From a virus, in IMG/VR virus record IMGVR_UViG_3300043331_001676, positions 15,024 through 79,023 of that record: 64,000 nt of DNA. The stretch is one strand, 5' to 3'. A program made the translations under genes and the position numbers. Under the pieces are notes generated by a model. It was not told where the DNA came from. It did not search any database and worked only from the letters and a program-made list of their open reading frames with translations. The stretch's first letter is position 1, and each line of letters starts with the position of its first letter. This document shows, piece by piece, positions 948-17,801 of this stretch.

Positions 948-1156
948 ACGTTGATTTCGGGATTCGAGTGTGATAGACTGAATAAAATAAAATTGCCTTG
1001 ACCCGTCCTGCCGCCAAGCTAAGCCGGGTCAAGGCTGATGACAGGAGTCCGCAGGTAAGGGCAAACTACCGTCTTTTGCTATTATACCATGCTTTGCCCC
1101 CGACCGGGCAAGTTTGCCGCCTCGCCTGTTGATTCCACAAACGGGATCAGCGATCA

Positions 1157-2707: not shown

Positions 2708-2773
2708 GCGGGTCCTTCGTAAATTCTAAACGAGCGTTTCAAAGTAAGGCGGCGGAGAAAAACAAGGAGTGCA

Positions 2774-3970
2774 ATGAATCACGACACATCTATCGAGGCC
2801 AGATTTGAAGGACATGAAGTCGTCGAAGCTGGCACAGCTACCATCCCTCACCTGCTTCTGTGGCATTATCGTGACCTGGGATTGGTGGATGCTCAATTCA
2901 CCCTGCTCACTCTGATCATTGCCAGGAAGTGGACCAGGGAAGCCCCCTATCCATCCCTGGCCCGGCTGCCCATGACCGCCAATTTGGACAGCCGGCGGCG
3001 CTATGTCCGGGACCTGCGCCAGAAGGGCCTCATTTTTACAAGCCGGCTTTACTGGACCAATAAGGACATAGAGGGAAATCCGAGCGCCAGGCCGGGGCGC
3101 GTCAGGTCCAATATATGGTATCTGGGCAGCCTTTTTCATAATCTGGTCAGGATTCACCGCTGGCTCCACGAAGGCAATCCCGCAGCATCATTTTGCGTTG
3201 AAATCCCCCTGACCACGATCAAGATGTTTCTCAAGGGCGATTTTCACGATACACCGGAATATATCATCAACATTATCAATCAGCAGACTCAGGGTGGGGT
3301 CGTTCTCAAGACAGTTACTCTACCGTGCGAAAAACGCACAGTAGGAAAATCTACTATGCGTTTTTCTAGTAGTAGTTTTTCTAGTAGTAGAAAAACGCAT
3401 AGTCATGAAGAAGAATCAGAGTCTAAGAAGAATCAAAAGAAAAAGAAGAATAAGGTAAAGGGCGCTGACGCGCCGCCTCTTCATGGGAGGAACAACCTGC
3501 CGGCAGAGGTGGCTATCAAAACCAGGGTTAAGGAAGTCTTTTGTCTAAAGACAGGCTTAAGCATGCCCCGACGCAAAACGGATCAAAACTTCTGGTGGTC
3601 CAACTTTGGCGAGATCGCCAGTATTGCCGAACAAAACATCGAGCGGGCCGAATGGCTGGTCGAGGAGGTCATTACTTACATGACAGATGAGCACCTGACT
3701 ATTTCCGGCCCGCAAAGCATTGTAAATCTGTGCCGGTCGTTAGCCGCCGGCCAGGTATTAGCAAAAGGAGGTACTAAGAAAGATGGACAAACTAGACGCA
3801 GTAATATCAAAGGTTTACGAGAAAACGGCAGCGATAACCCCATCAAGCCAATCTTCGACCCCGACACCGGGGAAGATTACTACGTTGACGCCCGATCCGG
3901 GCAGCGGGTCCATCCTGACGGCTGCCCCTGCTACGGGTGCCATCCAGAGCACCGACCCGACCCAGCCTGA
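2774..3970 (+). CDS. Phage replication initiator (lambda O-like)
   Basis: N-terminal wHTH-like region (YPSLARL), internal iteron/IR region followed by Lys/Glu-rich linker, immediately upstream of DnaC-like gene. Confidence 0.75.
   Translation: MNHDTSIEARFEGHEVVEAGTATIPHLLLWHYRDLGLVDAQFTLLTLIIARKWTREAPYPSLARLPMTANLDSRRRYVRDLRQKGLIFTSRLYWTNKDIEGNPSARPGRVRSNIWYLGSLFHNLVRIHRWLHEGNPAASFCVEIPLTTIKMFLKGDFHDTPEYIINIINQQTQGGVVLKTVTLPCEKRTVGKSTMRFSSSSFSSSRKTHSHEEESESKKNQKKKKNKVKGADAPPLHGRNNLPAEVAIKTRVKEVFCLKTGLSMPRRKTDQNFWWSNFGEIASIAEQNIERAEWLVEEVITYMTDEHLTISGPQSIVNLCRSLAAGQVLAKGGTKKDGQTRRSNIKGLRENGSDNPIKPIFDPDTGEDYYVDARSGQRVHPDGCPCYGCHPEHRPDPA
3329..3450. promoter_or_regulatory. Putative replication origin (iterons plus A-rich tract) inside the initiator gene
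   Basis: GAAAAACGCA(C/T)AGT at 3329 and 3390; 16-bp inverted repeat 3353-3368/3388-3403; direct TTTTTCTAGTAGTAG repeat; A-rich run downstream. Confidence 0.7.
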
Positions 3971-4829
3971 TCCCTTCGATGAACCCTTCGACCGCGCCCT
4001 TCGACAGGCTCAGGACAGCGCTCAGGAAGTTCTCAGGGCGCAGCCCTGCCCGGCCTGCGGCGGGACCGGCTTTTTCCGCCTCGATGCCCCGGTCGGTGCG
4101 CCCGGCTTTGGCCGCCTGGAAGCCTGCGATCACCCCAACCATACCCCAGTGAGGTTGGCCCGCCTGTCCGGCCTATCTAGCCTGCTTCCGGCTGAGGCAA
4201 AAAAGCGGCTTAAGGACATAAGGTCCAATAGCAAAAATGGCGAGGTCCTGGAGGCGGCCAGGGAGATGATTCGCAATCCGCGCGGCTGGTGGCTGTACCT
4301 GTACGGCAAGGCTGGCAACGCCAAGAGCGATGTCCTTCTGGCCGTCCACAACGAGATCAATGCCGCAGGCCGGGGTCCGGCGCTCTACGTTGAATTCACC
4401 CGGCTGCTGAACTGGATCACCGAAGCCCACAACGAGAAGGATTATCGCAGCAAATTCCTGGCCGGCGGGGGCGGGAAAGAGGGGGGGATGCCCGACAGTC
4501 TCGGCTACCAGGCCCGCCTGGACCGGATTACGGCCCTCCCGGTCATCCTCATTGACGAATTCGACAAGGCTCGGATGACCGACTTCCGGGAAGAGTTCCT
4601 GTTCGAGTTCCTGAACACCCGCTGGCGGCAGGCCGTGGCCGGGGAGACGGCCACCCTGTTTGCCGGCCAGACCGCGCCCATTGACTGGCCCGACCCGATC
4701 CGCAGCCGGATTGAAGACGGGCGTTTCAAAGTCGTCCACAACCTGGCCGGCGATGCCCGACGGGCGATGAAAAGAACCCTTCGACCCTTCGACTTCGCTC
4801 AGGAAGTTCAAGCTCAGGATGGGAGGTGA
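3783..4829 (+). CDS. DnaC/IstB-like helicase loader ATPase
   Basis: CPACGGTG..C Zn motif, Walker A variant GKAGNAKS, Walker B ILIDEFD, RSRI arginine finger; AGGAGG RBS. Confidence 0.85.
   Translation: MDKLDAVISKVYEKTAAITPSSQSSTPTPGKITTLTPDPGSGSILTAAPATGAIQSTDPTQPDPFDEPFDRALRQAQDSAQEVLRAQPCPACGGTGFFRLDAPVGAPGFGRLEACDHPNHTPVRLARLSGLSSLLPAEAKKRLKDIRSNSKNGEVLEAAREMIRNPRGWWLYLYGKAGNAKSDVLLAVHNEINAAGRGPALYVEFTRLLNWITEAHNEKDYRSKFLAGGGGKEGGMPDSLGYQARLDRITALPVILIDEFDKARMTDFREEFLFEFLNTRWRQAVAGETATLFAGQTAPIDWPDPIRSRIEDGRFKVVHNLAGDARRAMKRTLRPFDFAQEVQAQDGR
3972..4037 (+). repeat. Triple-nested CCCTTCGAC-N3-CTCAGG REP-like element
   Basis: Three CCCTTCGA starts followed by three CTCAGG ends, in frame in the DnaC-like gene. 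Confidence 0.85.
4777..4819 (+). repeat. Double-nested REP-like element
   Basis: CCCTTCGA[CCCTTCGACTTCGCTCAGGA]AGTTCAAGCTCAGGA at the DnaC C-terminus. Confidence 0.8.
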
Positions 4830-4832
4830 ACG

Positions 4833-5243
4833 ATGTGGCTCTTTACAACCTTCGGCTTTTTCTCTGTCGTCAAAAAGCACGGCGACACAGATTTAACCGT
4901 TCGCGCTCGTGTGGCCGCCGACCTGGACAATCTCAGAACGCGCGTTCCCGAACTCTCGGAGACTATTGCCACCCCGGACCAGGATTACCCGTACCGGGCC
5001 ACCGTCTCGGCGGTAAACCTGGCTATCGGCCTGGGTGAGGCGATCCAGGAGATTGACTACGATAACTTCAAGGCCGAGGGACCCATTGGGCCGACACTGG
5101 CCCGGCGGCAGGGCTATTTCCGGGCCGGGATGTACAGCCAGGTCTGGATGGGGCTGCATAACCTGCCTTATGAAGCGGGAAACCCTTCGACCTTGCTGGC
5201 CTCTCCGGGCCACTTCGTCTGGACAGGCCCTGATGTCAAGTAA
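4833..5243 (+). CDS. Hypothetical phage protein
   Basis: GGAGGT RBS; MWLFTTFGFFSVV..VRAR..DYPYRA..IDYDNFK pattern recurrent in phage proteins. Confidence 0.8.
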   Translation: MWLFTTFGFFSVVKKHGDTDLTVRARVAADLDNLRTRVPELSETIATPDQDYPYRATVSAVNLAIGLGEAIQEIDYDNFKAEGPIGPTLARRQGYFRAGMYSQVWMGLHNLPYEAGNPSTLLASPGHFVWTGPDVK

Positions 5244-5460
5244 ACGCCGCCGGCGCAGGCGCGAGTGCGAGGGCAAGCAGCGCTTCGAGAGTCCCGAAGC
5301 GGCAGGCCGGATGATCGGCTGGCTGGCCCGCATTGGCCGGCTCAGGCCCGGCACCCACGCCTACCCCTGCGATTTCGGCAACCACTGGCACATTGGCCGG
5401 GGCAGGAGAGGGCTGCGCCGGCAGCGGATCAAGAGCTGGCAGTGGAATATGGGAGTATGA
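5233..5460 (+). CDS. Small basic Cys/His protein
   Basis: ATG at 5233; C-x-GKQRF...AYPC..GNHWHIG motif. Confidence 0.65.
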   Translation: MSSKRRRRRRECEGKQRFESPEAAGRMIGWLARIGRLRPGTHAYPCDFGNHWHIGRGRRGLRRQRIKSWQWNMGV

Positions 5461-5461
5461 G

Positions 5462-6763
5462 ATGACTTTAGTAAAACAAACCAACCGCCGTATCTCTTTT
5501 TTTGACGACCAGCGCTTAACTCAGAGCGAGGCTATCGAGCTGACCGCGCAGGCGCTTATCTACTACATCGGCCAGTACCCGGACGTGGTTGTGTCCTATT
5601 CCGGCGGCAAAGACAGCACGTCTTTGCTGACCCTGCTCCTGGTTCTGATCGAAGCCGGGCGGGTGCCCCGGCCCAGGTCGCTGCGGGTGCTCCTGGCTAA
5701 TACGCGGGTCGAACTGCCCCTGCTGCACCTGGCGGCCCTCCAGATCATGCAGATCGTGCGAGAAAAGGGCTACCTGGCACAGGTGGTCGAGCCTCCCCTG
5801 GATGACAGGTTTTTTGTGCGCATGTTCGGCTTTGGCTATCCACCCCCACACAATGGCTTTCGCTGGTGCACCGATCTCTTAAAACTCAAGCCGATGCTGA
5901 CCGCGCTATTAGCGGCGCGCCAGGCTGCCGGCCAGAAATTTCTGGCCTTGACCGGGATGCGTATTGGGGAATCAGCCATGCGCGATCAGCGGATTGTCCT
6001 GGCCTGTGGCAGCAAGGATGGCGAGTGCGGCCAGGGAGCTATCCTGGCCCAGGCCCAGGAGAAGGCCAGGAAGGGTGGGGATAAATTTGGCCTGTACGAA
6101 AGCTCCCCGATCTCTTACCTTTTTACCCACACCCCGGCCAGTGAACCCGCCGATGTGCTTTCGCCCTTGCTTCACTGGCGTGTCTGCCATGTGGCCGACT
6201 GGCTGATGCTGGAAGCGCCTTCCTACGGCTTCCCCACCCATCGTGTGCTGGAAGCTTACGGGGCGGGCGTGGGCGATAGTGAACCGCTCGAGGCCCGCAC
6301 CGGCTGCATCGCCTGCCCGGTCGCGGGTAACGGCGATCCGGTCCTGGTCAAGACCACCAGGCTGCCGGGCTGGGAGTACCTGCGGCCCCTGCTGCGCCTG
6401 CGCGACCTGTACAACGAACTATCCAGGCCGAAGTACCGTCTCAAAAAGTCCGGCGAGCGCAACAAGGACGGCAAGTTATCCTCCCGGCCCAACCGGGGCG
6501 GACCACTTTTATTTGAGTCACGCCTGTATGGGATGGAGCAGGTATTGCGGATCCAGGCCGAGGTGAATGAAGGCGCGCGAGCTGCGGGCCGGCCCGAGCT
6601 GGTCTTGATCAGCGACGAGGAAAAGACCCGCATCCTGGAACTTATCGAGGCTGAAACCTGGCCTCAGAAATGGAGCGGGGATGATCTCCGGGGGGATGCG
6701 CTGGTAGACCTGGTGGTAGGCGAAGGATTGACCCAGCCGGTTTTGGCCGGGCTGAAAATATAA
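5462..6763 (+). CDS. PAPS-reductase-family PP-loop protein, DndC-like
   Basis: SYSGGKDS PP-loop, GYPPP..FRWCT..LK..P, GMRIGES, RTGCIAC, C-terminal GPL..R; start re-called at ATG 5462. Confidence 0.85.
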   Translation: MTLVKQTNRRISFFDDQRLTQSEAIELTAQALIYYIGQYPDVVVSYSGGKDSTSLLTLLLVLIEAGRVPRPRSLRVLLANTRVELPLLHLAALQIMQIVREKGYLAQVVEPPLDDRFFVRMFGFGYPPPHNGFRWCTDLLKLKPMLTALLAARQAAGQKFLALTGMRIGESAMRDQRIVLACGSKDGECGQGAILAQAQEKARKGGDKFGLYESSPISYLFTHTPASEPADVLSPLLHWRVCHVADWLMLEAPSYGFPTHRVLEAYGAGVGDSEPLEARTGCIACPVAGNGDPVLVKTTRLPGWEYLRPLLRLRDLYNELSRPKYRLKKSGERNKDGKLSSRPNRGGPLLFESRLYGMEQVLRIQAEVNEGARAAGRPELVLISDEEKTRILELIEAETWPQKWSGDDLRGDALVDLVVGEGLTQPVLAGLKI

Positions 6764-6795
6764 AAGATAGTGAGATATTTTACAGGAGGTGCAAT

Positions 6796-7935
6796 ATGAC
6801 CAATCAAATTCAAACGACGCCAATCACAATACCGCTGGCCAAATTAAAAACAGGCCGGTACCAGCAGCGCAAGGCGTTTGATGTAGCCGAGATGGGCGGC
6901 CTGGCCCGGACAATAAAAGCCGGCAAGCTAATGTTTCCACCTATGGTTATGGCAGTCAACGGCCATTATGAGCTGATTGCCGGCGACCGGCGTCGGCGCG
7001 CGCTGTATGCCCTGGCCCTGGAATCAGACGGCATGGGGATGGACCAGGCTTTAACCCTGGTTTGCAGTCCGACCGTAGACCAACTGCCGGACCGCTTCCC
7101 GGTGCTGCACAAGATAACAGTGCAGGTCAATCTGAGCCAGGAAACCGACCCTGCCACCCTGCAAACCCTGGCAGCAATCGAGAACCTGCAACGGGTTGAT
7201 TTGACCCCACTGGAGAAAGCAGTGGGGTTTCAAAGTCTGCTCGATGACGGCCTGACCCTGGCCGAGGTTGTCGAGCGTACCGGCGAAAAAGCCTCTTCCA
7301 TCAAGCGCTATCTGGCCCTGCTCTCGCTGCCGGAGCCTGTTCAGGAACATTTCGACAAGCGGCGTATCCCCCTTGATGTCCTGAAAGAACTGAGCGGGCT
7401 GCCCAAAGAAGTACAAATCCAGGTAGCCGAAAAGATGGCAGGCCGCAAAAGTAGTGAAATCAAGGCGCTGGTCAAGATGGTTCAGAAGCGGCTGTCTAAC
7501 TCGCCTCGTGCAACCCCCGGTAACGGATTATCAACGCTGCCGGCGTCGGAAACGGAAGGGGTATCGCTCGGTCTGGATAGTACAGAAGTGGAAGCCAATG
7601 CGATAGAAACCCGGCCCGCCTCGATTCGGGAGCAGTTGGCCGGGGCGAAGGAGATAATCTCCAAACTCACCATGCAGCTTCACCTGGATAGCCGGTTACT
7701 TAGAATGTGCGCGGAAGAGTTAATTGCTTGCACTCCCGACTCGCGCGTAGCGCTGATAGCCAACGCCAGAGCTGAGCAAATCGAGCGGTCAATCAAGCTG
7801 CGCAAGCGGCAGCCGCCGGTGGCCCAGGTGCAGCGTGGTCTAAAGATCGAGCGCTTCATGGAGAAGCGGCAGCGTGGCATCAGGCTTCGTCCTGAAGCTC
7901 AGCCCGAAGGGAGGCGAGATGCCCAACCTGGTTGA
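6796..7935 (+). CDS. ParB/RepB/Spo0J family protein
   Basis: YELIAGDRRRRA, ENLQRVDLTPLEKA and following HTH. Confidence 0.9.
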   Translation: MTNQIQTTPITIPLAKLKTGRYQQRKAFDVAEMGGLARTIKAGKLMFPPMVMAVNGHYELIAGDRRRRALYALALESDGMGMDQALTLVCSPTVDQLPDRFPVLHKITVQVNLSQETDPATLQTLAAIENLQRVDLTPLEKAVGFQSLLDDGLTLAEVVERTGEKASSIKRYLALLSLPEPVQEHFDKRRIPLDVLKELSGLPKEVQIQVAEKMAGRKSSEIKALVKMVQKRLSNSPRATPGNGLSTLPASETEGVSLGLDSTEVEANAIETRPASIREQLAGAKEIISKLTMQLHLDSRLLRMCAEELIACTPDSRVALIANARAEQIERSIKLRKRQPPVAQVQRGLKIERFMEKRQRGIRLRPEAQPEGRRDAQPG

Positions 7936-9280
7936 TGAAGCAGTCCGCCAACTTGATACAGCCCTGGTCTGGCTCGAAGTACCGCAAGGCAACCGTCGCT
8001 ATGGGTGGCATCGGCAGGAAGATGCGGTTCTGCGCCGGTGGTGGGGGAAAATTCCCCGGCCCGAACTGGCCCGGCGCGTTACCGGCGCGCTGCGTCAGGC
8101 AACCGGAGACAATCAAGCCGAACGGAGCATCAATGCCTGCATGAACCGGGCCGCTGAATTGGCCCTTGTCGCCTATGACGGTGAGCCGGGGGAAACTTAT
8201 CTCAAGCGGCTTTGCGAGGAGTCGAATGCCCCCTATGAAATGGCGCACAAGTCGGTCAGAGACGGCGAACTGGCCGCGACGAAAAAAGGCAAGAAACTGT
8301 ACGTCACCGACCTGGCCTGGGCGCTGTGGCTGACAAGCTACCGTGAACGGCTGCTCACTCAAGGCGAGGTTCTGAACGCGCTTGAAGGCGAAGTGGTCCT
8401 GACCAAGCGTGAGGCAATGAAATTTACCTGCCTGTCTGAAACTCATCTCGCCCGGTATTTACAGACCGGGGTTATCCAGGCGTGGCTGCTGCCGGGTATC
8501 AAAACCGGCAGGCCGGGAGAGTGGCTGGTGAGTAAAGCTTCAGCCGAAGCTTTTGTTCAGGCGCGTTCAGAAGGCCGGCTGCGGGCGCTGCTAGATCAAA
8601 ACCCGAAGTATGTAGCCTTGAGAAACCAATTGACCGGCCAAATTGGCGGGCTGCGCCGGGCCGGCCGGTTAAACGATGCCGACCCTCTGACAGAGCCGCA
8701 AAGCCTTTACCATCCCGGCTGCTTCACCATCAAGCAGGTGGCCTCTCACCTGGACCTATCTACCCAGGCCGTGCACGAGGCAATTGCCACTGGCCGGGTC
8801 AAAGCAAAAATCATCGTTAAAGGCGGCCGGCCACGCTACGCGATCACGCCGGAGGAGGCCCGGCGCTACGCCGGGCAGGTAAAGAGCCAGTCTGATACCG
8901 CTATCCGGCGCGACACCTGGTATCTGCGCCAGATTAAAGAGGCGAGACTGCTTACGGTACGCGACCTGGCCGAGCGCTGGCATAGATCGGAAGCGACGGT
9001 TCTTTTATGGGCCAAAAAAGCGGGTCTGCCGCGCCGCCGCTGGGGCCGGTACTGGGTCTTTGAACCGGAAGCTCTTGCTTCATTTGAAGCCACTAATTTC
9101 TTGACCCTGAGCGACCTGGCCCAGCGGTGGGGTAAATCTCCCGCTACGGCCGGGTTGTGGACCCGGCAGGCCGGATTACCCAGACGCCGGTGGGGCCGGG
9201 GGTGGGTATTTGAGCTTGACGTTATCACCTCGTTTGAAACCAGGAAGGGAATTCAGGGTGAAGCAGTTAGATTTTCTTGA
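7919..9280 (+). CDS. Multi-HTH (excisionase/MerR-like repeats) DNA-binding protein
   Basis: Several LT..E/D(L/A)A..-type wHTH modules, the last two near-tandem (LTVRDLAERW../LTLSDLAQRW..GLPRRRWGR.WVFE). Confidence 0.7.
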   Translation: MPNLVDEAVRQLDTALVWLEVPQGNRRYGWHRQEDAVLRRWWGKIPRPELARRVTGALRQATGDNQAERSINACMNRAAELALVAYDGEPGETYLKRLCEESNAPYEMAHKSVRDGELAATKKGKKLYVTDLAWALWLTSYRERLLTQGEVLNALEGEVVLTKREAMKFTCLSETHLARYLQTGVIQAWLLPGIKTGRPGEWLVSKASAEAFVQARSEGRLRALLDQNPKYVALRNQLTGQIGGLRRAGRLNDADPLTEPQSLYHPGCFTIKQVASHLDLSTQAVHEAIATGRVKAKIIVKGGRPRYAITPEEARRYAGQVKSQSDTAIRRDTWYLRQIKEARLLTVRDLAERWHRSEATVLLWAKKAGLPRRRWGRYWVFEPEALASFEATNFLTLSDLAQRWGKSPATAGLWTRQAGLPRRRWGRGWVFELDVITSFETRKGIQGEAVRFS

Positions 9281-9551
9281 GATCGTGCAAAAGACCTCGT
9301 TCGACTTCAAACACCACCCTGATCCCGAAATGGTTTTTGGTGATTTAAAAGTGGGCGACTGGTTTCAGATAATTACCTGGGTTAGCGGGGAATGGCACAC
9401 GATTTCTGAGGTTTTTGTTCGGGTGGATCAATCTGATGTTTCATTTCCTAACAGCATCGCTCTTGAACGCGACAGGCGGTATCCTTACCGGCTCGCCACA
9501 ACCTCATTTTTTAAAGATGTGCCGGTCAGGCTGGTAATAAAATCTGCATAA
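9258..9551 (+). CDS. Hypothetical protein
   Basis: GTG start overlapping upstream gene end. Confidence 0.55.
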   Translation: MKQLDFLEIVQKTSFDFKHHPDPEMVFGDLKVGDWFQIITWVSGEWHTISEVFVRVDQSDVSFPNSIALERDRRYPYRLATTSFFKDVPVRLVIKSA

Positions 9552-9581
9552 TTCAAGTAAAAAGAGACGAAGGATCCCAAT

Positions 9582-9842
9582 ATGTCCCCTCTCCGAATCC
9601 AGCAAAAAATAGTCCACCTCAGCCGGCTGCTCAGAGACCTCTCGATGCGCTATACCATCGCCTGCCTGGGGGATGAGCACGAGGAGGCCCGCCGGCTGGG
9701 GGCCGAGGCTCACGAGATCCGTTTTGAGATTTTGCGGCTCAAGCGCGCCTACCAGGATGAAGTGTCGCTCAGGGCAGAGCAGGCGGCGGCGGTGGCCGAA
9801 GCCTGCCGGATCATGGGAGCCGTGGCAGATACCCGGTCATAA
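9582..9842 (+). CDS. Hypothetical protein
   Basis: AAGGA RBS, operon position. Confidence 0.65.
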   Translation: MSPLRIQQKIVHLSRLLRDLSMRYTIACLGDEHEEARRLGAEAHEIRFEILRLKRAYQDEVSLRAEQAAAVAEACRIMGAVADTRS

Positions 9843-9869
9843 TCTTTATCCAAAGCACAAGGAGGCTTT

Positions 9870-10481
9870 ATGAACGCAATCACTCTCAAGCAAAGCCTGG
9901 TCGAGGCATTACGCGATAAATCCGGCCTGGAGCAGCACCGGCCCTACCTGGGGATGAGCAGTATCTACTACTGCCCGCGCAAGCTCTATTTTGATTTTGT
10001 CGAGGGCCGGCAGTCATTTACGGATAGGGATCACTATTACTGCTGGCTGGGCTATATGTACGAGGACAGGCTCAAGCAGCTTCTGGGCGAACAGGTCCAG
10101 TATAGGCCCATCGAGATCGTGGCCGAGTGGGATGCGCGCTTCCGGGGACACGCCGACTACCAGTTCGACAGCGCCCTGGTCGAGATCAAGTCTACCAACT
10201 GGGACAAGTATCAGAAGATCGTCGCCGACCGCAGGCCCGACCCGGCTCACGTGGCCCAGGTCCAGATGTATCTCCGCCACGGCGGCTGGCCGGCCTGCTT
10301 CATGATCTATATCGCGCGGGATGTGCCGCCGCGCGAGTGGCAGGCATTCCCGCTCTGGATTTTTGAGATCGGGCCGGACCCGGCCCTGGCTGACACGCTG
10401 GACCAGAAGGCCCGTCGTATCCTGATGGCCGTAGATAAAGGGCTTCCGCCGAACTGCATTTGTAACTGGTGCCGGCGGTAG
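9870..10481 (+). CDS. Solo Cas4-like PD-(D/E)XK exonuclease
   Basis: SSIYYCPR, GHAD, VEIKS, QVQMY and C-terminal CxCxxC (split Fe-S ligands). Confidence 0.85.
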   Translation: MNAITLKQSLVEALRDKSGLEQHRPYLGMSSIYYCPRKLYFDFVEGRQSFTDRDHYYCWLGYMYEDRLKQLLGEQVQYRPIEIVAEWDARFRGHADYQFDSALVEIKSTNWDKYQKIVADRRPDPAHVAQVQMYLRHGGWPACFMIYIARDVPPREWQAFPLWIFEIGPDPALADTLDQKARRILMAVDKGLPPNCICNWCRR

Positions 10482-10532
10482 GGTGGAATTCCAAACGCGC
10501 GTTTTGATTTCTTGTAGCCATAGGATTATCCG

Positions 10533-11186
10533 ATGAAGAACCCACAGATAGACACCTTACTGCAAGCAGCCAGAGCCACTAACATTCCAGCCGCCTGGTC
10601 TGGCGGCTGGTTTGTCGAGAAAACCCAACTCAAATTGCCGCAGCCTGTCTCGTACAGAGGGGGGATAAGGCTCCTGTCACCCGGAATCTACACGGCTCTT
10701 TTCCGAATGACCGACTCGACCATGATGAATTGGCCGCCGGGCGAGGTCGTAATGGAAGATACGCCCTTCGAGTTAAAAACCCATCTTGAGTTTATGCTCA
10801 AAGCAAGGGGCAGCATCCTTGTGACCGGCCTCGGCCTGGGCTGCGTCACGCGCGGCCTGCTGGCAAATCCAGCCGTGAACCATGTCACCTGCATCGAGAA
10901 ATCAGCCGACGTTCTAAAGCTGGTGCAGCCTTATATGCCCCAGACCAACCGGCTGTCCATCATCCACGCCGATGCCCTGGAGTGGACAACGACGACAACT
11001 CAAACCTTTGACTACGCCTGGCACGACATATGGTCGAATCGAGATGCCGGCGAGCCTCATCTTGATGAGCTGCACACTCATCTAATTTTCAACTGCCGCG
11101 ACAAAGTGAGGAACCAGGGCGCGTGGAAATACGCACGAGAAGCCAAACGGTTCCTGGCAGCTAAACAGATGAAGCTGATGGCTTAA
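10533..11186 (+). CDS. Class I SAM-dependent enzyme (spermidine-synthase-like methyltransferase fold)
   Basis: ILVTGLGLG, VTCIEKS, IIHADAL, FDYAWHDIW. Confidence 0.8.
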   Translation: MKNPQIDTLLQAARATNIPAAWSGGWFVEKTQLKLPQPVSYRGGIRLLSPGIYTALFRMTDSTMMNWPPGEVVMEDTPFELKTHLEFMLKARGSILVTGLGLGCVTRGLLANPAVNHVTCIEKSADVLKLVQPYMPQTNRLSIIHADALEWTTTTTQTFDYAWHDIWSNRDAGEPHLDELHTHLIFNCRDKVRNQGAWKYAREAKRFLAAKQMKLMA

Positions 11187-11195
11187 TATCAAAAT

Positions 11196-11385
11196 CCGGG
11201 CCGGTGAGGCAGCAAGCCGCCGGCAACACCCAGGCTGCAAAACAAAGACCCCCACACCAGGAATAACCCGGTGTAGGGGACGGTCACAGAACGACCGGAG
11301 CGGGCAGAGCGGGGAGTATGGGAAGGGTCGGGAGAGTACGCTCGCCTTCACGGTCGAGAGTACGGCACTAACGAGAGTGCCGGGA
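11196..11385 (+). ncRNA. Candidate structured RNA (multi-hairpin)
   Basis: At least five consecutive stem-loops in a non-coding gap, repeated GAGAGTA/GAGTA motifs. Confidence 0.45.
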
Positions 11386-11577
11386 GGGTGATTGTGACTG
11401 ATCTCATCCTACAACCAATTGGTTTGCTGTTCAACCCCAATTATTGGGGGTACTAAGGATAAGTTCGCAGGCCGGTCTCCCAGAATTATAAACGAGTGTT
11501 AGGAGATTTAAGTGATGCCATTTTCTCAAGAGGACCTTATCAGGGGCTTCGGCGACAAACTGTTTGGCCTGCTCACA

Positions 11578-11895
11578 ATGACCCAGGCCGACCTGGAAGC
11601 GATCCAGGCGCGGGTAGAGGCGGCGACACCGGGGCCGTGGGAAGGGCGACCAAGGCTTTTGCATAATGGTCGGGAGATAAGCTGCGAGATCGTGGGGAAT
11701 ATACATCCCGGCTGGGCTACCCCGGTCTGTCAGCTTTCACCCGGCTTTGCCTGGTACGAAAATGACAAAGATTTTTTGACCAGTGCCCGCACCGACATCC
11801 CCGCCCTCCTGGCCGAGATCGAGGCCCTGCGCCGGGCCTGCTACCATTACGCTACCCAGATGGGGCGATGGGGTGAGAAGGGCAAGAAAAAATGA
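11578..11895 (+). CDS. Ead/Ea22-like phage protein
   Basis: LEAIQARVEAATPGPW...FLTSARTDIPALLAEIEALR; start could be 11512. Confidence 0.7.
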   Translation: MTQADLEAIQARVEAATPGPWEGRPRLLHNGREISCEIVGNIHPGWATPVCQLSPGFAWYENDKDFLTSARTDIPALLAEIEALRRACYHYATQMGRWGEKGKKK

Positions 11896-13010
11896 CCGGC
11901 TACTTCGGCGTCATCGGCAACCGCGACTACATCAAGATCAAGGGTGAGCGCCGGCCCTTCTGGGAGTTCCTGGACCGGCAGCCGGCCGGCTGGCTGTGCT
12001 CGCTGGCCTACAGTAGAACTGATGTGCCGGCTGCGCCGATGATCTGGGACTGCGGAGCCTGGAGCTACAAGGCCCAGGAATCGCCCCGGCTGGGCAAAAC
12101 AGAAGTCACCCCGGCCTGGGCTGCCGGCCAGTATACCCAACTGGCCCGCCCCGGCGATTTCGCCGTCGCCCCCGACCATATGCTTATCCCCTTCGCGGGG
12201 GTGGACATCGAGGCTCGCCGGCACTTCAACCGCGCCTCGGCCCTGACCTTCATCGAACTCTGCCCGGCCCACCTGCGCCCGATGGCCGCCGTCCACGGCC
12301 TGAGTTTGGCTGAACGAATCGAGAACGCGCGTTTTCTTATGGATGCCGGCTACCACACGCTGGCCCTGGGCGGCCTCGCGGGGCAGGCGAATAAACGACA
12401 GATGATTTTTGAAGTGGTCGGCGCGATCCGCCGTGAATTCCCCGGCGTCTGGCTGCATGTCCTGGGCCTGTCGTCGCCGGGCTATGCGGCTGAGTGGCAG
12501 CGAATAGGGGTGGACAGTTTCGACGGGGCCAGCCACTTCAAGCAAGCCTTCACTGCCGGCAAGTTCTTTATGGAGCAGGACGGCAAGCTCGCCGGCTACC
12601 AGGCGGCCCGGCCTGGCCAGCCTGTCACGGCCCCGGCTTGCGACTGCCTGGCCTGCCTGCGGCTGCGGGCTGAAGGCGTGGACACCCGGAGCTACGGCTC
12701 CAACGAGCATAATATGGGCCGGGCCGCGCACAATCTGAACCAGTTGATGAGGGCTATTGACATCCAGGCCGTGCGCTCCCCCAGTTTCCCGCTAGATTGC
12801 CCGACCGGGGCAGCCGGCCGGCGAGATAACCGCTTGCCGCGCCACTGCGCGGGCTGCCGGTCCTTTCAGGAGAAGGGCGGCCTACGATGTGTGTACCCTG
12901 ATTTTGCCAACGATCATCTTGAATTCATCCAGGCTCACCTGGCTCGGACTGGATCGCTGAAAGAGATCGAGTGGACCCTGCGTGGTGATAACCGGCCCGG
13001 GGTCAGGTAA
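11892..13010 (+). CDS. tRNA-guanine-transglycosylase-fold protein, DpdA-like
   Basis: WDCGAWSY (DSG motif), APDH, ALGGLA, LHVLG, SFDGAS, Zn site CDCLAC...HNL. Confidence 0.85.
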   Translation: MTGYFGVIGNRDYIKIKGERRPFWEFLDRQPAGWLCSLAYSRTDVPAAPMIWDCGAWSYKAQESPRLGKTEVTPAWAAGQYTQLARPGDFAVAPDHMLIPFAGVDIEARRHFNRASALTFIELCPAHLRPMAAVHGLSLAERIENARFLMDAGYHTLALGGLAGQANKRQMIFEVVGAIRREFPGVWLHVLGLSSPGYAAEWQRIGVDSFDGASHFKQAFTAGKFFMEQDGKLAGYQAARPGQPVTAPACDCLACLRLRAEGVDTRSYGSNEHNMGRAAHNLNQLMRAIDIQAVRSPSFPLDCPTGAAGRRDNRLPRHCAGCRSFQEKGGLRCVYPDFANDHLEFIQAHLARTGSLKEIEWTLRGDNRPGVR

Positions 13011-13024
13011 TTGGAGTTAAAGTT

Positions 13025-13381
13025 ATGAGCACCCTCGACCAATACCGCTTAGGCTACGCGCTCAAAAGCAAGCGGTCCGGCCTGGACCTGAACCTGCGCG
13101 AGGTGGCCGCTGCCACCGGCATCAGCACTTCGACCCTGTCGCGGGTCGAGAACGGCAAGGGCCACCTGCTGCAAATAGATACCTTTCTGGCCCTGTGCGA
13201 CTGGCTGGGGGCGGACCCGGCCAGCTTCATCGTGCCCGGTACGGAAGCAAACAGCGCACCCGAAATGGGCGACCTGGAGGAGATTGAGGTCCGGCTGCGG
13301 GCCTGCCTGGAAGCGCCGGCGCTGTGTAAGGCTATCGCCGAAGTCATCCGGCTGATCAGGCTTGAGCAAGCAAATTCATAA
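13025..13381 (+). CDS. XRE-family HTH regulator
   Basis: LNLREVAAATGISTSTLSRVENG. Confidence 0.92.
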   Translation: MSTLDQYRLGYALKSKRSGLDLNLREVAAATGISTSTLSRVENGKGHLLQIDTFLALCDWLGADPASFIVPGTEANSAPEMGDLEEIEVRLRACLEAPALCKAIAEVIRLIRLEQANS

Positions 13382-13398
13382 GAACGGAGGATCATCGA

Positions 13399-14103
13399 AT
13401 GTTACCTGTACTGATCGGCTGCCGGGGCAATGACCCAGATGCGCCCAAACTGCTGAAAGCTGAGGGCTGGCGTTATGGTTTTCGGAGTGATGCAACGCCT
13501 TACGGCTGGCCTTACTTCGTAGACATCAAATGGTGTGATTATATTTGGTCTAGCCATTTGGCAGTCATTCGTGAATGGCGGCCCGTAATAGCGATGGTAG
13601 CCGATTATGAATCTCTGACTCGGCAATCTTTTATGTTAGCCCAGATTCGTGACATCTCTTCTCTGGGTGTTCGGCCTATGGTTTGCCCCAAGTTTTCAGG
13701 CGCAGTAGCCGACATTCCAAAAGGTTGCATTGTGGCTGTTTCTGTACCAACCGATTATGCCGGCTTCTTACCTGAACCAAGCGAGGTCAAGGGGCGAGAG
13801 TTGCATCTTCTCGGCGGCCATCCTGACCAATTTAGGGTGCTGATTCAGCGATATAATCAAAGCAAAGTAGTAAGTATTGATTGTTCGGCTATTTTTCAAA
13901 AGGCGCAATTTGGGGCTTTTTGGAGCGCAAAACGAAACACATGGAGACATGTGAAGCATCGCTTTTCTACTCACGCACTTACCAGAATGAGTGCAAGGCA
14001 AGTCACTACATATCTGGGTCAACCCCCTAAGTTATTCCTAAAACAGAGGAAGCGGCTGTACCAGGTTGGCTTCGAGCTGAAGCCTTCATTGTTTCAAATT
14101 TAA
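13399..14103 (+). CDS. DUF6610-like protein (second, divergent TGT-like barrel)
   Basis: YGFRSD, FVDIKW, VAD, CPK, LHLLGG.P, VSID motifs; lower GC than neighbours. Confidence 0.6.
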   Translation: MLPVLIGCRGNDPDAPKLLKAEGWRYGFRSDATPYGWPYFVDIKWCDYIWSSHLAVIREWRPVIAMVADYESLTRQSFMLAQIRDISSLGVRPMVCPKFSGAVADIPKGCIVAVSVPTDYAGFLPEPSEVKGRELHLLGGHPDQFRVLIQRYNQSKVVSIDCSAIFQKAQFGAFWSAKRNTWRHVKHRFSTHALTRMSARQVTTYLGQPPKLFLKQRKRLYQVGFELKPSLFQI

Positions 14104-14126
14104 CCCTGATTATGGAGAAGCAATTT

Positions 14127-14831
14127 ATGGAGAAGCAATCAACAAACTTTAAAAAGCACAAAGACGATGAATTTTTTGACCGCATTGACCTGATAGAAAA
14201 ACGCACCGGCCAGCCGCTGATCCGGCTGATCGTCGTTCCCCGCTACAAGACAAGCGGCTTAAGTGGGGACGAGTGGCGCATTAGCGGGCAGATTCAAATC
14301 AACAAAGGAAGCCGTTGGGAGCACTTTGACCGGCACTTCCTCGACCTGGAAACGGCGACGATAGGGCTGTATCCGGCCATCTTTGGCCATCCCAGGTTGC
14401 ACCAGGTCAGCATTGCCCACGCCGACTTTTACCGTAAAGGGGTTAAGGTCTACGAGTCCACATACGACGGCAAGCTGCTGCCCCTGATTCACGTCGCCGG
14501 CCACCTGCCCTGGGCCTTCATCCTGGCCCGTGAAAATGTGGAGCCGGGAAATTGGGACGAGTTCTGTTTTCAGCCCAGTTGCTCAGCCGAGGCGGTTTCG
14601 ACCTATCAGTTGAAATACGAGTATTGCCACCGGGGCCATAAAACCAAGCCTGTAACCGGCCCATATCATCGCCGGTTCTGCAAGCGGCATTTGAGGCGTG
14701 GCAACTGCGGCCTGGAAGATGCGGATGAGAATTACATCGTCATCGAAGGCCTCGGTCCCGACCAGGCCGAGGGCTGGGAGGAAGACGCCAGGCCGGCTGT
14801 ATTTGGCGGGTTTATTGATTTAGCAAAGTAG
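14127..14831 (+). CDS. Hypothetical Cys/His-rich protein
   Basis: ORF with duplicated start region; C-terminal FC..HLRRGNC motif. Confidence 0.7.
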   Translation: MEKQSTNFKKHKDDEFFDRIDLIEKRTGQPLIRLIVVPRYKTSGLSGDEWRISGQIQINKGSRWEHFDRHFLDLETATIGLYPAIFGHPRLHQVSIAHADFYRKGVKVYESTYDGKLLPLIHVAGHLPWAFILARENVEPGNWDEFCFQPSCSAEAVSTYQLKYEYCHRGHKTKPVTGPYHRRFCKRHLRRGNCGLEDADENYIVIEGLGPDQAEGWEEDARPAVFGGFIDLAK

Positions 14832-14853
14832 TTAGCCAGGAGGAAAACCAGGA

Positions 14854-15105
14854 ATGAACATTGACACAGGCCATTTGGTAGACACATCGGGAATGACGCC
14901 GGAGGAGCTGCTGGGGCTGCGCCAGGTCGGCTATGAGGAAGTCCCGCCCGGGCTCAGCCGGGCGGCCCGGCGGGCGCTGGCGGGCAAGAAGGAAACAAAG
15001 ATCAGCCTGACTTCAGGCGGCCAGCTTTCCCGGTGGGCGGCGGCGAAGCGGAAGGCGCGCCGGAAGATGGCGAAGGAGTCGAGAAGGAAGAATAGGGGGA
15101 AATGA
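14854..15105 (+). CDS. Small basic hypothetical protein
   Basis: AGGAGG RBS; KMAKESRRKNR tail. Confidence 0.75.
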   Translation: MNIDTGHLVDTSGMTPEELLGLRQVGYEEVPPGLSRAARRALAGKKETKISLTSGGQLSRWAAAKRKARRKMAKESRRKNRGK

Positions 15106-15167
15106 TCGTCATCTTCAAGTGCGCCAGCGAGGGGGAAATGATCGTCATCTTCAAGTGCGCCAGCGAG
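15094..15167 (+). repeat. Perfect 36-bp tandem duplication spanning RBS and start codon
   Basis: AGGGGGAAATGATCGTCATCTTCAAGTGCGCCAGCG twice. Confidence 0.95.
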
Positions 15168-15347
15168 CACTGCCTCCAGCAGTTTACCGAGGAATGGCCG
15201 CTCTCCTCCCTTTTGGGTCACTTTCTCCAGGGCCGAGTGGTACAGTGTCCGACCTGCGGCCTTCGGCAACTGCTGCATCCACCGCAGCCGGCCACGGCCA
15301 TCGTGGTCAGTATTGATCCGGTTGACCCCAAAAAACCTATTGCCTAA
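15102..15347 (+). CDS. Small zinc-ribbon protein
   Basis: CxxxxC and CPTCG motifs; ATGA overlap with upstream gene. Confidence 0.6.
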   Translation: MIVIFKCASEGEMIVIFKCASEHCLQQFTEEWPLSSLLGHFLQGRVVQCPTCGLRQLLHPPQPATAIVVSIDPVDPKKPIA

Positions 15348-15450
15348 TCTTTCCACCTGTGATAGACTCATAACCAAGCGGCGGGTAGTCCATCATTGGC
15401 TACTCTTGCCGCTTCGTTTTAAAAGCGCCAAAGCTTTTGGGACGAAATCT

Positions 15451-15495
15451 AAAAGCACCTCGGACAACCCGCCGCCGTCCGAGGTGTGCTTTTTT
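15451..15495 (+). terminator. Rho-independent terminator
   Basis: GCACCTCGGAC...GTCCGAGGTGTGC stem followed by T6. Confidence 0.75.
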
Positions 15496-15498
15496 AAA

Positions 15499-15527
15499 AG
15501 GATGAAGGATGAAGGATGAAGGATGAA
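15499..15527 (+). repeat. (AGGATGA)n heptamer tandem repeat
   Basis: About four copies in an intergenic gap. Confidence 0.85.
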
Positions 15528-15567
15528 ATAAAGAAAATGTTCCCCCTCACTCCTCATCCCTCTAAAG

Positions 15568-16170
15568 ATGGCCGATGTCAATGACCTCCAGGAGGCGCTG
15601 AACGCGCCCCCGCCAACCCAGGCCCAGATCATCGAGACCTGGCTGGCGTTAAAGGAGGCTCACGAGAAGGCGGAGCAGGCGGCCAGGGAAGCGGCTGAAC
15701 GCAGCCGGCGGGCTGAAACGGCGGCCAAAAACCAGATCAGGATCCACGAGACGCTGCTGTCGGAGCTGGGCCGGATCATCCAGCAAAACGCCCTGTGGAT
15801 CGCGGCCATCGGCGAATTCCAGGAGGAGATCAGCCAGAAGCTGGAGCAGGGCGATTACCGACTATCCCTGATCCTGGAGGGAACCCGGATCAGGCTTGAG
15901 GGGGCCAGGGCCGATAAGGAGCGACTGGCCCAACTCATCGAGGAGATCAAGCTCTCAGAGCTTGATCTGATCGAGACTGAGGAGGTTGGGCTGCGCAGGC
16001 GGATCAGGCTGCACCACAAAAACCTGAGCAGCCTGGAGATCCAGAAGGCGGCTTTTGGTTCGATGTCCACGCCGCTCTACATCCTCAACCAGATCGCCGA
16101 TGAGGAGGATAAAATCAAGGAACTTGAGGCCAGGCTGGCCGAACTTATGAAAGACAGGAATACCCCATGA
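15568..16170 (+). CDS. Coiled-coil protein with C-terminal helical-hairpin (EAD-like) domain
   Basis: Heptad-rich; C-terminal NLSSLEIQKAAFG..TPLYILNQI..EE.KI. Confidence 0.7.
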   Translation: MADVNDLQEALNAPPPTQAQIIETWLALKEAHEKAEQAAREAAERSRRAETAAKNQIRIHETLLSELGRIIQQNALWIAAIGEFQEEISQKLEQGDYRLSLILEGTRIRLEGARADKERLAQLIEEIKLSELDLIETEEVGLRRRIRLHHKNLSSLEIQKAAFGSMSTPLYILNQIADEEDKIKELEARLAELMKDRNTP

Positions 16171-16245
16171 TCCTGCTAAAAAACAATCTCCCTTTCTTCT
16201 GGCAATGTCCACTTGACTTTTTGAAACTGAAGGTGGTGCTGAGGC

Positions 16246-17274
16246 GTGTCTTCTGTCGTTGAACTTATGGATGCCCTGCTCCTCCTGCTGGGCTTTATCC
16301 TATTTACGCAGTTTCTGTATGCCGGCTTTTACGCCTGGAGGGACCTGCTGGCCGGCCAGAACGGCTTCATCCGGGCTATCGCCCTGTTTTCCCTGGGAGG
16401 CGTCCTGGCCGGCTCGCGGACCATTGCCGAGGTCGTGCTGCAAAACCTGGACATGAATACCCAGCCCTATATCAACCTGCTACTGAAACTCTGGCAGGCC
16501 GGCGTCTATGGCCTGGTTACCTTCTCGCTGCACCTGATGATCCAGAAGCTCAGAGATGAGCGAAAGAACGAAGAGGGGCAGGTCCCTCGATCCCACTCAG
16601 GACAGGCCCTGGTCGAGATGGCCCTGATCCTGCCCATCCTGATTTTCATATTGATCGGCGTCTTTGAGGTCGGCTACGCTCTGCGCTCCTACATCGTCCT
16701 GGCCAATGCCAACCGGGAGGCGGCCCGCTTTGCCGTCCGGCCCCGGGTGCTCGATTACAAACTGCCCGACCCCGGCTATGCCAAGATCTGGACGCACACC
16801 CTTAACTCTATCGAGGGCCAGATTGCGTTCGAGCGCGGCGGGGAGATGCTGGTGAGCCGGGTCTTTGTGGACGCCGGCATGGCCTGCCCGCTCACGGGCA
16901 CGTGCAACTGCGACCAGGCCATGCGGGCCCCCTTCACCCCGACGATCCTGCTTAACCCGGTCCTGTATCCGACCCATACGGCCCGCTTCCCGGCCACCCT
17001 TCGGGCTGAGCCTCAGGACGAAGCCTCGACCCGCCAGAGCCGGGTCCTCAGCCCCGACTTTTATCTGTACCTGGTCGCGCAGAACCGGCGGCATAATTGC
17101 GAACTGATCCAGAAGGGAGTCCTGCCGGTGGTGGACGACCTGATCGTGGTCGAGATGTGGTACGAGCAGCCGCAACTGTTCGGATTTCCACTCATCTCTA
17201 ACCCCTATACCGACCCCGTGCCGATGTACACCCACACGGTCATGCGGCGCATCGAAGCCGTGAGGAGTCCATGA
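16246..17274 (+). CDS. Multi-pass membrane domain fused to TadE-like pseudopilin
   Basis: About three N-terminal TM segments, then SGQALVEMALILPILIFILIGVFEVG...ANREAARFA. Confidence 0.85.
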   Translation: MSSVVELMDALLLLLGFILFTQFLYAGFYAWRDLLAGQNGFIRAIALFSLGGVLAGSRTIAEVVLQNLDMNTQPYINLLLKLWQAGVYGLVTFSLHLMIQKLRDERKNEEGQVPRSHSGQALVEMALILPILIFILIGVFEVGYALRSYIVLANANREAARFAVRPRVLDYKLPDPGYAKIWTHTLNSIEGQIAFERGGEMLVSRVFVDAGMACPLTGTCNCDQAMRAPFTPTILLNPVLYPTHTARFPATLRAEPQDEASTRQSRVLSPDFYLYLVAQNRRHNCELIQKGVLPVVDDLIVVEMWYEQPQLFGFPLISNPYTDPVPMYTHTVMRRIEAVRSP

Positions 17275-17780
17275 GTTCTACCCTGTTCGGCCCCCTGAAC
17301 AAGACCCTGCGCCGGATGGTCAACGATAGCGCCAATTACCAACGCGGCGTGCTGGACCTGGTCAAAAACATTGGCCGGTCTGAAACCAACCGGGAGCAGT
17401 TCGAGCGGGACCTGAATAAATTAAACGAGAGCGCGCTGGCGATGATCCGGGACAATATGGCCCTGGCTGCCAGCTCGCGGGAGCTTGAGGAAGCGCCTTC
17501 GATTGCCGATGATATAGCCGATCTGACCATCAAACTACAGTTGATGGATTACGCCCAGCGGCTGGATTACATCGGCCTGGCCCGCTTCCTGGAAAATATT
17601 GACCCCGAACTGTTTGAGCCGACCTTAAAAGAGCTGTCCACTTACGAGGGCGGGGAGGAGCGGATCCGGGCGCTGCTCGCGGCTATCGGGAAGGTGCTGC
17701 TGAAAGATAGCCAACCCGCCGGGGAAGCGGGCCAGGCTGTCGAGGTATTGCCGGCAGAGGATTCCCAAACGAGCGTTTGA
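17271..17780 (+). CDS. Hypothetical protein
   Basis: GAGGAG RBS, ATGA overlap. Confidence 0.75.
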   Translation: MSSTLFGPLNKTLRRMVNDSANYQRGVLDLVKNIGRSETNREQFERDLNKLNESALAMIRDNMALAASSRELEEAPSIADDIADLTIKLQLMDYAQRLDYIGLARFLENIDPELFEPTLKELSTYEGGEERIRALLAAIGKVLLKDSQPAGEAGQAVEVLPAEDSQTSV

Positions 17781-17801
17781 AGTTTCTCAAGGAGAGACAT
17801 T

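Follow-up and report, generated by a model that had tools for sequence, protein, structure and literature searches.

Here, a putative DNA modification locus was analyzed in a 64,000-nucleotide stretch of viral DNA (the window), which covers bases 15024–79023 of the 79,023-bp IMG/VR record IMGVR_UViG_3300043331_001676 (G000; CheckV completeness estimate 81%). Between positions 5462 and 14103 the window carries two genes for proteins with the barrel fold of tRNA-guanine transglycosylases (TGTs), namely a DpdA-like protein (11892–13010) and a protein of the family DUF6610, also described as DpdA4 (13399–14103). We regard it as reasonably probable that these two form a functional unit of two enzymes in a temperate soil phage that does not encode precursor synthesis, and that the DndC-like, ParB and S-adenosylmethionine (SAM) enzyme genes of the same block are separate modules. 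Several unrelated DNA-modification genes would have accumulated in this block, and both barrels are most likely two enzymes differing in base or sequence preference. Modification of DNA against restriction is already known; what is new here is the presence of a DpdA beside a DpdA4-like barrel with no precursor genes.

The DpdA-like protein

Among proteins of known structure, the closest sequence to the 11892–13010 product was DpdA of Salmonella (7UI4; phmmer, E 2e-6). Moreover, a Foldseek comparison of its AlphaFold2 (AF2) model (predicted local distance difference test, pLDDT, 80) retrieved 7ui4 with E 2.6e-12 and tRNA TGTs with 2.8e-8 or weaker (~1e-7), i.e., the fold match to the DNA enzyme was about four orders of magnitude stronger. 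The initial annotation of the stretch, made from its letters alone, had described the DxG, HxLG, SFD and zinc motifs of this protein as intact, and all of them (D53-C-G, H189-V-L-G, S209-F-D211 and C250/C252/C255/H280) were invariant in 15 homologues. Equivalences to Salmonella Montevideo DpdA (SmDpdA) were taken from the alignment with 7UI4 and the residue roles published for that enzyme (PMC10164549), with the numbering offset taken from the tag. D53 aligns to the general acid/base Asp95, D211 to the nucleophile Asp256, W57 to Phe99, L191 to Leu236, H135-G136 to His181-Gly182, G160-G161 to Gly206-Gly207 and F220 to Phe265, which contacts the DNA. Each of these residues is invariant in the same 15 homologues, and the zinc residues C250, C252, C255 and H280 align to CxCxxC...HN of 7UI4. 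An invariant APDH motif (D95) resembles SLDH of SmDpdA, and phmmer sets D95 5–6 residues out of register with the base-recognizing Asp130, of which D95 is probably the equivalent. Sequence and model comparisons both point to a DpdA-type enzyme, which may insert 7-cyano-7-deazaguanine (preQ0) or a derivative into DNA. That the TGT-like enzymes instead target tRNA, of the host or of the phage, we regard as highly improbable: tRNA modification is the ancestral activity of the TGT superfamily, and the DpdA-like protein has no Pfam match other than TGT, but the DNA enzyme DpdA is closest by both sequence and fold, the equivalent of the DNA-contacting Phe265 is invariant, a DNA-binding domain is fused to relatives as described below, and candidate hosts already possess a tRNA TGT of their own.

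The protein scored 73.5 bits against the NCBIfam DpdA model, below the equivalog cut-off of 200 bits, and tblastn (E ≤ 1e-5) retrieved no match to it from 50,697 deposited phage records, which on sequence grounds argues for a distinct, so far metagenomic, subfamily related to bacterial DpdA (bDpdA), with at least 347 members. About half of these members carry a C-terminal DUF6884 domain (e.g., P0109, P0083, L003:8611-9963 and L011:10001-11356), for which Pfam curators give a YaaA-like fold that binds DNA and flips bases (PMC11701544). G004, a complete phage of 45 kb, encodes DUF6884 as a separate gene just after DpdA (39941-40312). By analogy, the DpdA plus DUF6884 layout recalls the pairing of DpdA with a DpdC-like protein, and 2′-deoxy-7-amido-7-deazaguanosine (dADG) rather than 2′-deoxy-7-cyano-7-deazaguanosine (dPreQ0) might be predicted as the product. 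In the protein of the window, the usual place of DUF6884 is taken by a Cys-rich C-terminal tail of ~85 aa (residues 290–372; 12759–13010) with low pLDDT, which is common only to the closest homologues, P0002 and P0005, and which may be a zinc ribbon. The same tail is found in the closest DpdA relative, located on a 282-kb contig of an Anaerolineae metagenome-assembled genome (MAG).

The DUF6610 protein

The product of 13399–14103 matched Pfam PF20314 (DUF6610) at 92.2 bits, the gathering cut-off being 27. This family was found in the halovirus HVTV-1 as a remote TGT relative, named DpdA4 and called archaeal-virus-specific (Cui, Hutinet et al., 2023, PMC10516641); the DNA of HVTV-1 carries the deoxynucleoside of 7-aminomethyl-7-deazaguanine (preQ1), dPreQ1, and DpdA4 (gp69) is the sole barrel of this virus (PMC10516641). 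Judged by its sequence, the second barrel of the window is a member of the published DpdA4 subfamily. The initial annotation had seen in it a second, divergent TGT-like barrel, which both Pfam and the structural comparisons bear out, and had missed the published DpdA4 (PMC10516641). Its AF2 model (pLDDT 94) is a TIM barrel without the zinc subdomain, and in an exhaustive structural comparison the top match was archaeosine TGT 1iq8 (VIA Z 15.0, 224/234 residues), followed by unrelated TIM barrels at Z 12–14 and by TGT, Cap10, QTRT2 and DpdA at Z 12–13. The best BFVD matches were a ParB-fused homologue (A0A6J5RUN9, 2.6e-13) and an uncharacterized protein of HCTV-1 (1.6e-11), which is among the haloviruses carrying the DUF6610 family; further neighbors comprised phage proteins labeled queuine tRNA-ribosyltransferase or tRNA-guanine transglycosylase and uncharacterized proteins of phiST and nt-1, which are phages known to carry DpdA3 and DpdA2. 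The viral structural neighbors are thus of the DpdA type. Alignment of the DUF6610 profile with that of the DpdA-like protein by hhalign was weak (21% probability, E 1e-3) and paired HLLGG with HVLG and D161 with the nucleophile Asp. PDB sequence searches with the DUF6610 protein and with the related gp1 of Mycobacterium phage Knocker returned nothing meaningful. HLLGG and the aspartates D42, D69 and D161, the latter checked across 29 homologues and sited at strand ends of the model, are invariant, from which a catalytically competent enzyme would be expected.

In deposited phage genomes, DUF6610 was detected only in haloarchaeal viruses (~25% identity) and in one mycobacteriophage, and in metagenomes at least 142 relatives with 35–79% identity were found. 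The restriction of DpdA4 to archaeal viruses does not hold here, as relatives of the window's phage lie on bacterial MAG contigs and Knocker gp1 belongs to a mycobacteriophage. Furthermore, a GNAT acetyltransferase domain is fused to the N terminus in about a third of the DUF6610 homologues (e.g., P0177-P0239, L024:9281-10654, L025:9584-10657, L031:7929-9014 and L032:1033-2208). The DpdA4 paper does not describe this fusion, which suggests that base exchange is coupled to an acylation. DUF6610 fusions longer than 410 aa were not found, which is weak evidence.

Source of the base and candidate host

QueC, QueD/PTPS, FolE, radical-SAM (QueE) and YhhQ genes were found nowhere in the 79-kb record, which extends to the whole record, and to YhhQ, what the initial annotation had reported for folE, queC, queD and queE in the window. 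They were likewise found neither in the 99-kb phage G006 (96% complete) nor in the complete G004. Since neither synthesis genes nor a transporter are encoded by the phage, the inserted base probably comes from the host pool, and the host-derived base named by the initial annotation remains the logical substrate for DpdA-type enzymes with no precursor pathway. Phages with DpdA alone have already been described, and host or imported precursors were suggested for them (Hutinet et al., 2019, PMC6884629). True QueC was present in four of the five bacterial genomes that carry a relative of the DpdA-like protein.

Relatives of the window's genes are linked to 7-deazaguanine metabolism. The 148-kb relative G007 encodes a DpdA-DUF6884 fusion with 58% identity and, grouped in one cluster, QueC, FolE, QueD and radical-SAM (QueE). 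In L006 and L012, the gene directly 3′ of that for the DpdA-like protein encodes YhhQ/Vut_1, a family of preQ0/preQ1 transporters, and in L032 such a gene directly follows GNAT-DUF6610. As a separate observation, the FolE (GTP cyclohydrolase I) match of G007 falls into two pieces (profile positions 12–71 and 69–178) about 1 kb apart within one 561-aa frame (G007:C1:124830-126341, − strand), which could reflect an intein or another in-frame insertion.

The host class is tentatively Anaerolineae. A DpdA with 70% identity and the same tail is located on the Anaerolineae MAG contig mentioned above, and one chromosomal prophage capsid gene with 44% identity was found among 401 genomes. In the class of G015 (Anaerolineae), the 41 sampled genomes contained QueC in no case (0/41), tRNA TGT in all cases (41/41) and YhhQ in 33, so that these bacteria appear to be salvagers of queuosine precursors. 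With an Anaerolineae host, the phage would rely on preQ0/preQ1 that the host has scavenged. The lack of QueC in the candidate host class also speaks for an exchanged base other than preQ0/preQ1, either a different 7-deazaguanine or an unrelated analogue of purine, as do the known substrate shifts among DpdA subfamilies (PMC10516641) and the acyltransferase fused to about a third of the DUF6610 homologues, a hint of other chemistry. We give this alternative little credence: the presence of YhhQ and TGT in the candidate host class indicates that a salvaged pool exists, relatives are linked to QueC/D/E and YhhQ genes, and the host assignment on which the QueC argument depends is weak.

Recurrence of the DpdA and DUF6610 genes

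Outside the window, both barrel genes were found together in G006, where the order is SNF2-methyltransferase, DpdA, DUF6610 and DUF5131 with overlapping stop/start codons; capsid and tail genes are common to G006 and G000 at 40–77% identity. The samples behind these co-occurrence counts were small, as viral-contig scans with single proteins gave few loci and those from alignments no more than 10, 6 and 3, a metagenome scan gave 7 short loci and a genome scan gave 6 loci. A third arrangement is displayed by Mycobacterium phage Knocker, in which gene 1 (L060:1-1317), whose sole annotation is ParB-like nuclease domain protein, encodes a ParB-like domain fused to DUF6610 and is followed by FolE, DpdA, QueC and QueD. 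The DUF6610 half of Knocker gp1 scored 60 bits against the DUF6610 profile built here and keeps the motifs, and the full ParB-DUF6610 fusion occurs in only three deposited phages. By analogy, this fusion may echo the dependence of DpdA on DpdB in the bacterial system.

These arrangements bear on the question whether DpdA and DUF6610, possibly with ParB as a nucleoside triphosphatase (NTPase) loader, form one complex, comparable to the eukaryotic QTRT1/QTRT2 heterodimer or to DpdA plus the ParB-fold ATPase DpdB. In favor of a complex, the two genes are close neighbors in the window and overlap in G006, ParB-DUF6610 fusions stand beside DpdA in Knocker and also occur in an uncultured phage (the best BFVD match), bDpdA requires DpdB (PMC10164549), and genes with a ParB domain are found in the vicinity of DpdA or Que genes in both G001 and G007. 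However, a non-catalytic partner would not be expected to keep three invariant aspartates as DUF6610 does, only one of both genes is present at the majority of DUF6610 and DpdA-like loci, the only barrel of HVTV-1 is DpdA4 (PMC10516641), the ParB of the window is of the GxxRxxA partition type rather than DGQQR and is missing from G006, and no DpdA-DUF6610 fusion was found, the last point being weak evidence. A single complex is thus unlikely, if still a serious contender. A wider version, in which DpdA, DUF6610/DpdA4 and a ParB-family NTPase loader constitute a previously unrecognized multi-part base-exchange machine that recurs in bacterial phages (the window's phage, G006 and, as ParB-DUF6610 fusions, actinophages) and loads scavenged preQ0/preQ1 in a non-synthesizing host, strikes us as doubtful, and two enzymes acting as a functional unit remain the preferred explanation.

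Genetic setting of the block

A large serine recombinase is encoded upstream in G000, which also contains a terminase gene and a long structural module; therefore, the phage is taken to be temperate and tailed, and the block to belong to its early/replication region. Across the block, G+C content is ~58–60%. All genes named in the initial annotation (DndC-like, ParB, SAM enzyme, TGT-fold protein, second barrel, DUF5131 and a methyltransferase-like protein, the last with a weak match to PHROG 67) are present on the + strand, and the features are as follows, in window coordinates.

1–621, + strand: C-terminal part of a DUF5131 protein (radical-SAM superfamily), the gene beginning left of the window (Pfam DUF5131, 6e-49)
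1157–2707, + strand: 516-aa protein with weak DNA-methyltransferase likeness (PHROG 67, 1.8e-7)
5462–6763, + strand: DndC-like PP-loop protein (PHROG 12882 'PAPS reductase', 5e-108; NCBIfam DndC, 86.5 bits)
6796–7935, + strand: canonical ParB (ParB_N and HTH_ParB; Pfam, NCBIfam)
7874–9280, + strand: DNA-binding protein with multiple helix-turn-helix (HTH) motifs, a bystander (Pfam HTH_17, 5e-17)
9870–10481, + strand: Cas4/PD-(D/E)xK-type exonuclease, a recombination gene and bystander (PHROG 1990, 6e-14)
10533–11186, + strand: small class-I SAM enzyme, 'spermidine-synthase-like' (PHROG 15480, 2e-29)
11187–11511, no strand: 325-bp non-coding gap with the DndC-to-methyltransferase genes on one side and the DpdA genes on the other (list of open reading frames, ORFs)
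11512–11895, + strand: 127-aa ORF, its stop overlapping the DpdA start codon (PHROG 1667/722, unknown function)
11892–13010, + strand: putative DpdA-type DNA-guanine transglycosylase, 372 aa (NCBIfam DpdA, 1.4e-20)
13025–13381, + strand: XRE-type HTH protein between both barrel genes (Pfam HTH_31, 3e-10)
13399–14103, + strand: predicted DUF6610/DpdA4-like minimal TGT barrel, 234 aa (Pfam PF20314, 4e-26)
18355–19677: terminase

The complete DUF5131 gene spans G000 14655-15611 and scored 293 bits. The 516-aa protein had no Pfam or NCBIfam match; in a different virus, a homologue with 39% identity (L025:880-2757) and a GNAT-DUF6610 gene are separated by ~8 kb. The 127-aa ORF found no tblastn match in related loci and is not conserved beside DpdA elsewhere. 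Within the block's sole sizeable non-coding gap, a G+C-rich hairpin with a 13-bp stem (11249–11279) is accompanied by a T-run on the minus strand. A search of positions 1–20000 against Rfam returned no family, the preQ1 riboswitch included, promoter and terminator scans performed no better than on shuffled sequence, and whole-block megablast found nothing similar in the 50,697 phage records. Another gene of this phage, L002:13768-14421 just upstream of DUF5131, is a homologue of L019:8589-9314. The L019 gene showed a weak, sub-threshold match to Mom of phage Mu DNA modification (25.2 bits vs a cut-off of 27.1), and its homologue is possibly one more DNA-modification gene of the window's phage.

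The DndC-like, ParB and SAM enzyme genes

The DndC-like protein aligned to NCBIfam DndC TIGR03183 over residues 33–391 with 86.5 bits, the equivalog cut-off of 290.4 not being reached. Its PP-loop SGGKDS is located at residues 47–52, and C136, C182, C189, C242, C282 and C285, invariant in four homologues, would supply the cysteines for a predicted iron–sulfur cluster. An IbrA-type assignment (3′-phosphoadenosine-5′-phosphosulfate, PAPS, reductase plus DUF3440) was rejected, there being no DUF3440 match. The initial annotation had recognized no dndA/B/D/E in the window; as regards DndA, no cysteine desulfurase (Aminotran_5; DndA/IscS type) was found in the 79-kb record, and host IscS could substitute, whereas for DndE the search was uninformative, its controls remaining silent. 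In relatives, the DndC-like gene adjoins a large C5 DNA methyltransferase gene in Pseudomonas phages Dobby and phiC725A and Rhizobium phage RR1-A (L057, L058, L059), and it is likewise flanked by DNA methyltransferase genes in L019 (11918-13318), L020, L021 and G006 (72858-74060), i.e., the gene abuts or lies near a DNA methyltransferase gene, usually C5, in all seven relatives checked. Because its relatives adjoin or lie near DNA methyltransferases and not DpdA, we judge the DndC-like gene to be a separate module with DNA methyltransferase as its conserved partner. The conserved pair of PHROG 12882 and C5 methyltransferase genes deserves a study of its own.

The ParB of the window exceeded the TIGR00180 cut-off (74.3 vs 58.45 bits). 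It was also considered as a DpdB and rejected, as it matches ParB/Noc models and carries the box AGDRRRRA, of the GxxRxxA type, and not DGQQR. ParB_N was found nowhere in the records of three other DndC-like relatives. The SAM enzyme gave only sub-threshold spermidine-synthase/RsmA matches, leaving the SpeE cut-offs unmet (24.6 vs 260 and 16.9 vs 249.55 bits). It belongs to a family of ~200 aa whose atlas clusters are 82–92% viral and whose homologues are dispersed among phages of Caulobacter, Gordonia, Microbacterium and Microcystis. The SAM methyltransferase is therefore judged to be independent of the DpdA pair.

The initial annotation had suggested that the phage may elaborate the inserted base, and had called a shared pathway unproven. 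A single pathway of this kind, in which further thiolation, methylation or aminoalkylation of the inserted base is the work of the DndC-like protein, the ParB, the SAM enzyme or other neighbors, is quite improbable on the present data. The genes are indeed co-directional within 9 kb, a DndC-like gene is also present in G006 (47% identity), PP-loop genes of PHROG 424 are found no more than 3 kb from DpdA or DUF6610 in G001, G004 and G011, DUF5131 adjoins DUF6610 in G006 and G011, and tailoring after insertion has precedent (DpdM, DpdN, DpdC; PMC10516641). However, homologues of the window's DndC-like, ParB and SAM proteins occurred within 10 kb of a DpdA-like relative in none of 16 loci. G006 retains DpdA and DUF6610 and has its DndC-like gene 42 kb from DpdA, and contains no homologue of the window's ParB (6796–7935), SAM enzyme, Cas4-like nuclease, multi-HTH protein or XRE gene. 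The methyltransferase neighborhood of the DndC-like relatives (7/7), cultured phages included, and the occurrence of the SAM enzyme family in unrelated phages not known to carry DpdA point the same way, and the block itself is divided by the 325-bp gap. DUF5131 as an obligate DUF6610 partner was likewise rejected, DUF6610 being nearby in only two of 13 DUF5131 loci.

Proposed function and comparison with known systems

Several points weigh against a functional unit of DpdA and DUF6610. Modification of the DNA of this phage is inferred from its genes, DpdA4 activity could not be shown in E. coli (PMC10516641), and the modification status of the published 'singleton DpdA' phages is not established (PMC6884629). 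Among 16 DpdA-like and ~12 DUF6610 loci both genes occur together only in the window and G006, and the pairing is therefore not obligatory; moreover, as capsid and tail genes are shared, the common gene set of G000 and G006 is one evolutionary observation, i.e., retention in a sister lineage, and not two. The PHROG 424 PAPS-reductase genes near DpdA or DUF6610 belong to another subfamily than the DndC-like gene and leave room for a looser functional link of PP-loop enzymes to DpdA/DUF6610. Additionally, the host call is weak, since it is derived from one MAG-contig DpdA and one prophage capsid gene, and with a host truly unable to make preQ0, the enzymes might run short of base or might use a different substrate.

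Following the preferred reading, we propose that, after replication, each of the two TGT-fold enzymes would flip guanine out of the phage DNA and form a covalent Asp-deoxyribose intermediate, with D211 (DpdA) and D161 (DUF6610) as putative nucleophiles and D53 (DpdA) and D42 (DUF6610) as putative general acid/base residues. A free 7-deazaguanine base, preQ0 and/or preQ1, would resolve the intermediate, and the modified genome would thereby be resistant to host restriction. The base would be drawn from the host pool, which in an Anaerolineae host would be salvaged from the environment via YhhQ.

The 'singleton DpdA' phages, such as Salmonella phage 7-11 and Mycobacterium phage Orion (PMC6884629), resemble the window in possessing DpdA without preQ0/G+ synthesis genes and are presumed to rely on host or imported 7-deazaguanine. 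In contrast to them, the DpdA of the window is nearest to bacterial DpdA and unmatched in the 50,697 phage records, and a second, DpdA4-type barrel is added. With the haloarchaeal DpdA4 (HVTV-1 gp69; PMC10516641) the window shares the Pfam family and the minimal TGT-like barrel, and DpdA4 of haloviruses, like the family of the window, occurs with or without synthesis genes; however, the window protein shows only ~25% identity to it, has its relatives in bacterial MAGs, stands next to another DpdA, and many of its relatives have the N-terminal GNAT domain. The bacterial DpdA-DpdB-DpdC system of Salmonella Montevideo (PMC10164549) has in common with the window the DpdA fold and catalytic residues, and a gene of the ParB superfamily lies nearby in the window; a further resemblance is the YaaA-like DUF6884 that relatives of the window protein have fused downstream of the DpdA barrel. 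It differs in that the window's phage has neither a DGQQR-type DpdB nor a DUF6884/DpdC-like gene and its DpdA stays below the equivalog cut-off. Genes 1–6 of Knocker, like the window, combine DpdA, a DUF6610 domain and a ParB-family domain in one cluster, whereas in Knocker DUF6610 is fused to the ParB-like domain and the cluster includes FolE, QueC and QueD. Finally, DndC of the Dnd systems and PHROG 12882 share with the window protein the SGGKDS PP-loop, conserved cysteines and similarity to the DndC model along its length, in contrast to the low model score (86.5 vs a 290-bit cut-off), the missing cysteine desulfurase in the phage and the DNA methyltransferase as conserved neighbor.

For annotation, co-directional DNA-modification genes of an early region should not be read as one pathway unless co-occurrence data support it. 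DpdA4, published as confined to archaeal viruses, is found here in bacterial phages, where it is able to sit beside a bDpdA-like transglycosylase. Whether the two barrels are redundant, complementary in the choice of base or sequence, or subunits of one machine is testable, and the ParB-DUF6610 fusions hint at subunits. Anaerolineae, having YhhQ and TGT without QueC, would be a natural case in which to ask whether phage DNA protection can depend on salvaged queuosine precursors, and if the multi-part machine were true, phage anti-restriction would depend on an environmental micronutrient.

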